From Escherichia coli (GTDB lineage Bacteria; Pseudomonadota; Gammaproteobacteria; Enterobacterales; Enterobacteriaceae): 64,000 bases of DNA. A model generated the notes under the pieces. It did no database searches, was not told where the DNA came from, and worked only from the letters and a program-made list of their open reading frames with translations. The stretch lies in NCBI RefSeq assembly GCF_003334765.1, contig NZ_QOWT01000001.1. The stretch is one strand, 5' to 3'. This document shows, piece by piece, positions 44,928 to 45,754 of the stretch (its first letter is position 1; each line of letters starts with the position of its first letter). A program made the position numbers and the translations under genes.

Positions 44928-45674
44928 ATGGCATTACTGGAAATTTGCTGTTACAGCATGGAATGTGCACTAACGGCGCAGCAAAACGGCGCAGACAGAG
45001 TTGAATTATGCGCAGCCCCAAAAGAGGGGGGCTTAACGCCGTCGTTGGGTGTACTGAAATCCGTGCGCCAGCGGGTGACGATCCCTGTGCATCCGATAAT
45101 TCGCCCACGCGGTGGTGATTTTTGCTACAGCGACGGTGAGTTTGCCGCCATTCTTGAGGATGTGCGCACGGTCCGCGAATTAGGTTTTCCTGGACTGGTG
45201 ACGGGCGTTCTCGATGTTGACGGGAATGTCGATATGCCACGAATGGAAAAAATAATGGCTGCTGCCGGTCCGCTGGCAGTGACTTTTCATCGCGCCTTCG
45301 ATATGTGCGCTAACCCTTTACATACACTCAATAATCTTGCGGAATTGGGCATTGCCCGGGTACTGACATCAGGGCAAAAATCAGACGCACTGCAAGGTTT
45401 ATCAAAAATTATGGAACTTATTGCCCATCGTGATGCTCCAATCATTATGGCCGGAGCAGGAGTCCGTGCAGAAAACCTGCACCACTTCCTCGATGCCGGA
45501 GTGCTGGAAGTCCATAGCTCCGCGGGAGCGTGGCAAGCCTCACCGATGCGTTATCGTAATCAAGGATTGTCCATGTCATCAGATGAACACGCGGACGAGT
45601 ATTCGCGTTATATCGTAGACGGGGCGGCGGTTGCTGAAATGAAAGGAATCATTGAACGCCATCAGGCCAAATGA
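44928..45674 (+). CDS. cutC: Copper homeostasis protein CutC
   Basis: 248 aa [39 protein letters not shown]... Confidence 0.93.
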
Positions 45675-45754
45675 TTTTTACCGTTGCATCATGTCGCCCA
45701 ATATGATGCTTGCTCGTACCAGGCCCCTGCAATTTCAACAGGGGCCTTTTTTTA
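45448..45754 (+). ncRNA. micL: MicL (RyeF) sigma-E-dependent sRNA embedded in the cutC 3' region
   Basis: sigma-E-like promoter GGAACTT-N16-CTCCA at ~45413-45440 inside cutC; strong terminator 45721-45754; implied length ~308 nt matches MicL. Confidence 0.5.
45721..45754 (+). terminator. Rho-independent terminator of cutC/MicL
   Basis: AGGCCCCTG-CAATTTCAA-CAGGGGCCT followed by TTTTTTT. Confidence 0.8.

Follow-up and report, generated by a model that had tools for sequence, protein, structure and literature searches.

The 3' part of the cutC gene in the 64-kb stretch of Escherichia coli DNA analysed here (hereafter, the window) almost certainly contains micL, which encodes the third small RNA found to depend on sigma-E in E. 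coli. The locus offers no novelty: a description of MicL appeared in 2014, and both the K-12 annotation and Rfam include it. An Rfam scan of the whole window revealed a MicL match (RF02654) at 45446..45753 on the plus strand, with a score of 381.9 bits (gathering score, 56) and an E value of 2e-115. The match spans model positions 1–308 of 308, i.e., the full length of the model. In the RefSeq annotation of MG1655, micL (b4717) maps to 1958441..1958747, is 307 nt long and overlaps the 3' end of cutC. Residues 45447..45753 of the window feature 0 mismatches to b4717, and the 60 nt located 5' of 45447, which include the promoter, also correspond exactly to the MG1655 sequence. The primary transcript is consequently assigned to the 308 nt at 45446..45753 (+).

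The original prediction, made from the DNA letters, was that an embedded MicL of about 308 nt would end at the cutC terminator. Both the full-length RF02654 match at 45446..45753 and the identity to MG1655 micL agree with it, and there is no evidence against the MicL identification. Expression and regulation in the present strain are probably the same as in K-12, as judged from the shared sequence.

The region is nearly ubiquitous in the species. Of 5426 complete E. coli genomes, 5425 contain a match of at least 95% identity to a 501-nt query (window 45300-45800). The annotation underlying this region is cutC only in the best 8 RefSeq E. coli matches listed. The query identified 5428 matching places in total, 2 of which lie on records classed as plasmids, and a single genome of the 5426 has no match.

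Host gene and strain background

The cutC coding sequence spans 44928..45674 (+), ends with a TGA stop codon at 45672-45674 and encodes 248 residues. It is present in the list of open reading frames and corresponds to the gene annotated as cutC (b1874) in MG1655. The product matches the E. coli CutC structure 1TWD (E = 3e-165). The gene hosts both the promoter and the 5' 226-229 nt of MicL. Residue 132 (codon 45321-45323) is histidine in the window and tyrosine in 1TWD. This is the sole difference in 248 residues, and the codon is located upstream of the MicL promoter.

The window derives from an E. coli strain other than MG1655. Identity around the locus is 99.87%, and 51 mismatches are found in the surrounding 38 kb. 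At about 25695, the window is without 769 bases that are present in MG1655 and correspond to the IS1H element upstream of flhDC, which indicates that the strain is not a motile K-12 MG1655 lineage variant. The segment 1-3036 does not align to MG1655 at the megablast level. This segment includes a fliC open reading frame (1522..3015, plus strand, 497 aa) encoding a different flagellin allele. The fliC stop codon and the fliA start codon are separated by approximately 167 nt in the window and by 320 nt in K-12, which suggests that most of the K-12 FliX sRNA region, located in the fliC 3' UTR, is different or missing.

Additional Rfam matches in the window include C0465 (31378-31455, minus strand, 111.6 bits), ES036/CssrF (49689-49731, minus strand, 45.5 bits) and three tRNAs (12853-13152, plus strand) that correspond to glyW-cysT-leuZ. 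The leuZ trailer gives rise to the 3'ETS-leuZ sponge RNA in K-12. The K-12 annotation of the homologous region also features MotR, AsflhD, AzuR/AzuC and SdsN.

Related loci were obtained by a single DNA-pattern scan with one genome per species. The search pattern was taken from the 3' portion of MicL-S, the processed form of MicL, and the promoter was deliberately left out. The scan yielded 19 loci from Escherichia, Salmonella, Citrobacter, Lelliottia, Pseudenterobacter and Huaxiibacter, a set in which 27 nt of MicL-S (45713-45739) are conserved by construction and the absence of MicL is not detectable. The whole cutC gene is contained in 17 of the 19 loci, and the coding sequences are 66-92% identical to that of the window. 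All six loci of other species that were tested scored above the Rfam MicL threshold and matched the full length of the model (118-369 bits).

Sigma-E promoter and transcription start site

Promoters recognised by sigma-E conform to the consensus GGAACTT and TCAAA, with transcription starting at A or G (Rhodius et al. 2006, PMC1312014). The -35 element of micL, GGAACTT (45413..45419, plus strand), is an exact copy of the consensus; it is read in the cutC frame as ..G GAA CTT (Met-Glu-Leu), and its first six bases are invariant in 17 loci. The -10 element, TCCAA (45437..45441, plus strand), matches TCAAA at 4 of 5 positions and is part of the hexamer TCCAAT (45437-45442), which is also invariant in 17 loci. 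The original prediction described GGAACTT followed after 16 nt by CTCCA inside cutC, and both strings occur as described, at 45413-45419 and 45436-45440. The site chosen for the -10 element is correct, but its register is not, as TCCAA, one base to the right, fits TCAAA better. The gap after GGAACTT is 16 nt in the CTCCA register and 17 nt in the TCCAA register.

The pattern GGAACTT-N17-TCNAA occurs once in the 64-kb window when both strands are considered. By chance, 0.03 exact occurrences are expected per window (3 of 100 shuffled sequences had one), but the expectation rises to 1.07 when one mismatch is allowed. The motif alone is therefore moderate to weak evidence, suggestive rather than decisive. 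A relaxed scan of the window (GAACTT-N15-18-TCNAA) did not reveal further sigma-E promoters beyond the micL site.

A/T-rich upstream elements occur at sigma-E promoters (Rhodius 2006/2012). The A/T-rich stretch AGGTTTATCAAAAATTAT, located 5' of the -35 element at 45395..45412 (+), is a candidate UP element, as it includes invariant third-codon A residues at 45404 and 45407. Codons at 45402-45407 specify serine, threonine, proline or glutamine, followed by lysine, isoleucine or leucine, in 17 species, while both third-position A residues are retained. These residues possibly represent a UP-element A-tract constraining the coding sequence.

In K-12, the ends of MicL had already been mapped in 2014 by Northern analysis after rpoE induction, primer extension and RNA-seq, which are the kind of experiments proposed along with the original prediction. 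MicL is induced in K-12 both by sigma-E overproduction and in stationary phase, and a GFP fusion carrying the promoter region from -65 to +20 is inducible by sigma-E. MicL RNA is almost entirely lost when the -35 and -10 elements carry point mutations that leave the CutC protein unaltered (all in Guo et al. 2014, PMC4102768). A 2025 paper describes repression of a micL-lacZ fusion by overproduced NsrR (PMC12249550). Transcription in the present strain would depend on sigma-E as it does for the identical K-12 sequence.

MicL starts either at 45446 (U; Guo et al. and Rfam) or at 45447 (A; RefSeq b4717) on the plus strand, and the position of about 45448 initially proposed is off by 1-2 nt. Across species, position 45446 may be T, C or A. 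By contrast, 45447 is always A, a base that conforms to the A/G start consensus.

The position of the start suggests an additional role for the RNA, one that would supplement rather than replace its function as MicL. An AUG at 45447-45449, corresponding to Met174 of CutC, is in frame with cutC, so that the transcript begins with U-AUG or, according to RefSeq, with the A itself, and this A is invariant while the preceding base varies. The 308-nt MicL could thus also serve as a leaderless or near-leaderless mRNA. If so, sigma-E would yield a 75-residue C-terminal CutC fragment, or ribosomes would modulate RNase E processing, and MicL would deserve the name dual-function RNA on a second count. 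No discussion of this reading was found in the literature searched, and the term “leaderless” is absent from Guo et al. (PMC4102768). We consider the reading improbable. Met174 is conserved in human CUTC and in Streptococcus CutC, both of which come without MicL, and the AUG is therefore explained by protein constraint. Moreover, the last 75 residues belong to a TIM-barrel-like fold and would probably not fold independently, and with the published start at U 45446 the AUG is preceded by a leader of 1 nt. All phenotypes reported can be produced by MicL-S without the rest of the RNA (Guo et al. 2014, PMC4102768), and no support for the leaderless reading was found beyond geometry.

Selection on the promoter within the coding sequence

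Four runs of at least 6 invariant nucleotides were identified in the 747-nt coding sequence among the 17 loci. Two of these correspond to GGAACT (45413-45418) and TCCAAT (45437-45442) of the promoter. When a mask with the 7+5 layout of the promoter elements was moved along the alignment, the true site, at which 11 of 12 positions are invariant, was the best of 716 placements. In contrast, the sequence separating the -35 from the -10 element varies greatly, in nucleotides as well as in encoded residues. Third-codon positions are especially informative: 4 of 5 are invariant inside the elements, as opposed to 20 of 231 (8.7%) in the rest of cutC (binomial P = 2.6e-4; Fisher P = 3.9e-4).

These data bear on the view that the promoter motif is fortuitous, and that the sRNA is only processed from the yecM-cutC mRNA, as a promoter-less 3'-UTR sRNA similar to CpxQ. 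[quoted passage not shown] 2014, PMC4102768). However, the exact motif is expected at the far lower frequency given above, and the two elements are invariant over six genera although the spacer and nearby third positions vary. [quoted passage not shown] It is accordingly very unlikely, and a functional sigma-E promoter is the preferred reading.

Protein selection on the Met-Glu-Leu and Ala-Pro-Ile residues encoded at GGAACT and TCCAAT, in place of promoter function, is the least credible explanation and can practically be dismissed. Glu163, Leu164, Pro170 and Ile171 do not vary among the 17 loci, but the same holds for the synonymous third positions of GAA and CCA, against the 8.7% background, and residues change while promoter bases stay the same at 45411-13, 45435-37 and 45402-07. 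For instance, codon 45411-13 may be ATG, TTG or ACG (Met, Leu or Thr), but the terminal G, at which GGAAC starts, is always kept. Similarly, codon 45435-37 may be GCT, ACT or GTT (Ala, Thr or Val), but the terminal T, the first base of TCCAA, is always kept. Promoter bases that remain fixed while amino acids change denote selection at the nucleotide level, which is not explicable by the protein.

The transcribed region is less uniform. MicL-S is 97% invariant over 17 loci, and still 96% invariant when the bases fixed by the search pattern are set aside. Third positions of the coding sequence adjoining MicL-S are only 6-13% invariant. Inside cutC, the body of MicL has 10 invariant third positions among 76, and the 5' part of the gene has 10 among 155, a difference that is not significant (P = 0.076); these alignments thus give no clear sign that the 5' 226 nt of MicL are constrained at the RNA level. 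In a covariation test on 19 sequences, the Rfam long-form structure received little backing in the coding body. Overall, 82% of the cells were paired, compared to 41-47% with slid partners. Only 7 pairs were changed on both sides, a number reached in 47 of 500 shuffles, and the structure had been derived from E. coli-like sequences. Helices 3, 7 and 8, located in the coding body, were paired in only 43-66% of the cells, and the MicL-S helices never varied. Updegrove et al. (10.1101/341578) describe sequences 5' of the MicL cleavage site as dispensable, and the 5' body, which evolves much as the remainder of cutC does, agrees with this.

One short stretch of the body, 45626-45632 (GCG GCG GTT), has invariant third positions at 45626 and 45629, and a third position (45632) conserved in 18 of 19 sequences. 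Its partner in the Rfam long-form structure is MicL-S 45693-45698, within the lpp-pairing region. The stretch may form an occluding helix in the unprocessed RNA, or its conservation may be due to chance, as about 0.5 such runs are expected.

MicL-S, terminator and processing

MicL-S, as defined by the coordinates of Guo et al. 2014, corresponds to the 80 nt at 45674..45753 (+), in line with the predicted fold and the high level of conservation. The fold consists of two stem-loops, 45683-45713 and 45721-45747, and has an energy of -28.8 kcal/mol (z = -5.15; none of 200 shuffled sequences was as good). The z value of the long-form MicL fold is -4.37. Stem-loop A (45683..45713, plus strand) is the first of the two 3' stem-loops, to which Updegrove et al. 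assign a role. The second is part of the Rho-independent terminator common to cutC and MicL (45721..45753, plus strand), which is likely also the Hfq-binding 3' end. The terminator features a 9-bp GC-rich stem (45721-45729/45739-45747), a 9-nt loop and 7 U residues extending to 45753 (-17.7 kcal/mol). The strong cutC terminator of the original prediction is thus supported by folding. The terminator is invariant in 19 loci, a figure that includes the bases at 45713-45739 fixed by the search pattern. A simple consensus terminator scan did not report the cutC/MicL terminator because the loop limit was set at 8 nt and the loop is 9 nt long.

[quoted passage not shown] 2014, PMC4102768). In the same work, MicL-S was sensitive to terminator exonuclease (TEX), which indicates that it is a processing product. 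Both MicL and MicL-S bind Hfq, as evidenced by co-immunoprecipitation and Hfq-dependent stability (Guo et al. 2014, PMC4102768). The cut is made by RNase E; two adjacent 3' stem-loops position it, and Hfq assists (Updegrove et al., 10.1101/341578). MicL-S would be released in the same way in the present strain, since the two directing stem-loops are predicted and the sequence is identical to the K-12 sequence that was tested.

Stop codons vary among the loci. In Escherichia, Salmonella and Citrobacter, cutC ends with a TGA that overlaps the 5' end of MicL-S. In contrast, the cutC genes of Pseudenterobacter, Lelliottia and Huaxiibacter (L016 3244-3558, L020 9414-9728 and L021 7306-7620) end with a TAG located 11 nt 5' of the conserved AUUUUUACCG sequence at which MicL-S starts. 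The position of cleavage is thus independent of the stop codon, in agreement with the TGA-to-GGA result reported by Guo et al. 2014 (PMC4102768).

Pairing with lpp and physiological role

The lpp-pairing region corresponds to MicL-S +19..+49 (45692..45722, plus strand), as established by the compensatory mutations of Guo et al. 2014 and reproduced in the computed duplex. Folding of MicL-S +19..+49 against +16..+46 of MG1655 lpp gave the published pairing, with an energy of -25.0 kcal/mol. The duplex contains a 7-bp Watson-Crick core, GUACCAG (45716-45722), in which MicL-S +43..49 pairs with lpp +16..22. MicL-S +41..+44 lies opposite lpp +21..+26. Repression of lpp is lost when the 4 nt at MicL-S +41..+44 are changed, and is regained when lpp carries the compensating mutation (Guo et al. 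2014, PMC4102768).

Unconstrained RNAduplex calculations were discarded as tests of specificity. MicL-S and lpp -37..+102 yielded -46 kcal/mol, a value equalled by 57 of 1000 shuffled sRNAs. When MicL-S 1-49 was used, 4 of 60 control ORF starts were as good as lpp. Since lpp is not singled out by duplex energy, the target assignment rests on published genetics. RNA-seq and ribosome profiling identified lpp as the only target, and lpp mRNA falls 20-fold (Guo et al. 2014, PMC4102768). Repression of lpp by a sigma-E-driven RNA, which the original prediction also put forward, has hence been shown experimentally for the identical K-12 sequence (Guo et al. 2014, PMC4102768). Mutants of cutC are sensitive to copper because they lack MicL and not, as was once believed, because they lack CutC (Guo et al. 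2014, PMC4102768).

The steps of the mechanism have been shown for the identical K-12 sequence in published work; the contribution of the present analysis consists of sequence identity, the Rfam match, predicted folds and purifying selection. RNA polymerase with sigma-E would initiate inside the cutC reading frame when the envelope is under stress or the cells are in stationary phase. A 308-nt RNA would be made from 45446/45447 to the end of the cutC terminator at 45753, and its processing would release the 80-nt MicL-S (45674-45753). Hfq-bound MicL-S would then pair through +19..+49 with lpp codons 6-16, lowering both the translation and the mRNA level of lpp. Lpp is an abundant lipoprotein of the outer membrane, and reduced amounts of it would relieve the lipoprotein/outer-membrane assembly machinery, with feedback on sigma-E activity.

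Implications for annotation and for hidden promoters

In strains annotated with cutC only, the phenotype of a “cutC” knockout belongs to the embedded sRNA. The locus is also a clean example of a promoter that constrains a protein-coding sequence, as promoter bases are fixed while amino acids change. The same signature of synonymous-site conservation could help to locate further promoters within coding sequences.

Comparison with known small RNAs

The element does not differ from MicL of K-12 (also known as RyeF; RF02654; b4717; Guo et al. 2014). The two have the same sequence from -60 to the 3' end, occupy the same position in cutC, and share the sigma-E promoter, the terminator, the MicL-S stretch and the lpp-pairing region. 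Only the host strain differs.

MicA and RybB resemble MicL in several respects. All are transcribed from sigma-E promoters of the GGAACTT/TCAAA type, are Hfq-dependent, and feed back on sigma-E by repressing abundant outer-membrane proteins. Unlike MicL, MicA and RybB are free-standing intergenic genes, and MicL also differs from both in being processed from a longer primary transcript. Guo et al. 2014 (PMC4102768) count 31 targets for MicA and RybB combined, while only lpp has been reported for MicL.

CpxQ, which derives from the cpxP mRNA, and DapZ, which is associated with dapB, resemble MicL in having a terminator in common with the host mRNA and in having, as active RNA, two 3' stem-loops that bind Hfq. 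DapZ reportedly has its own promoter within the upstream coding sequence dapB, as MicL has within cutC. CpxQ is released by RNase E, as is MicL, but unlike MicL it does not have its own promoter. MicL combines an internal promoter with RNase E processing.
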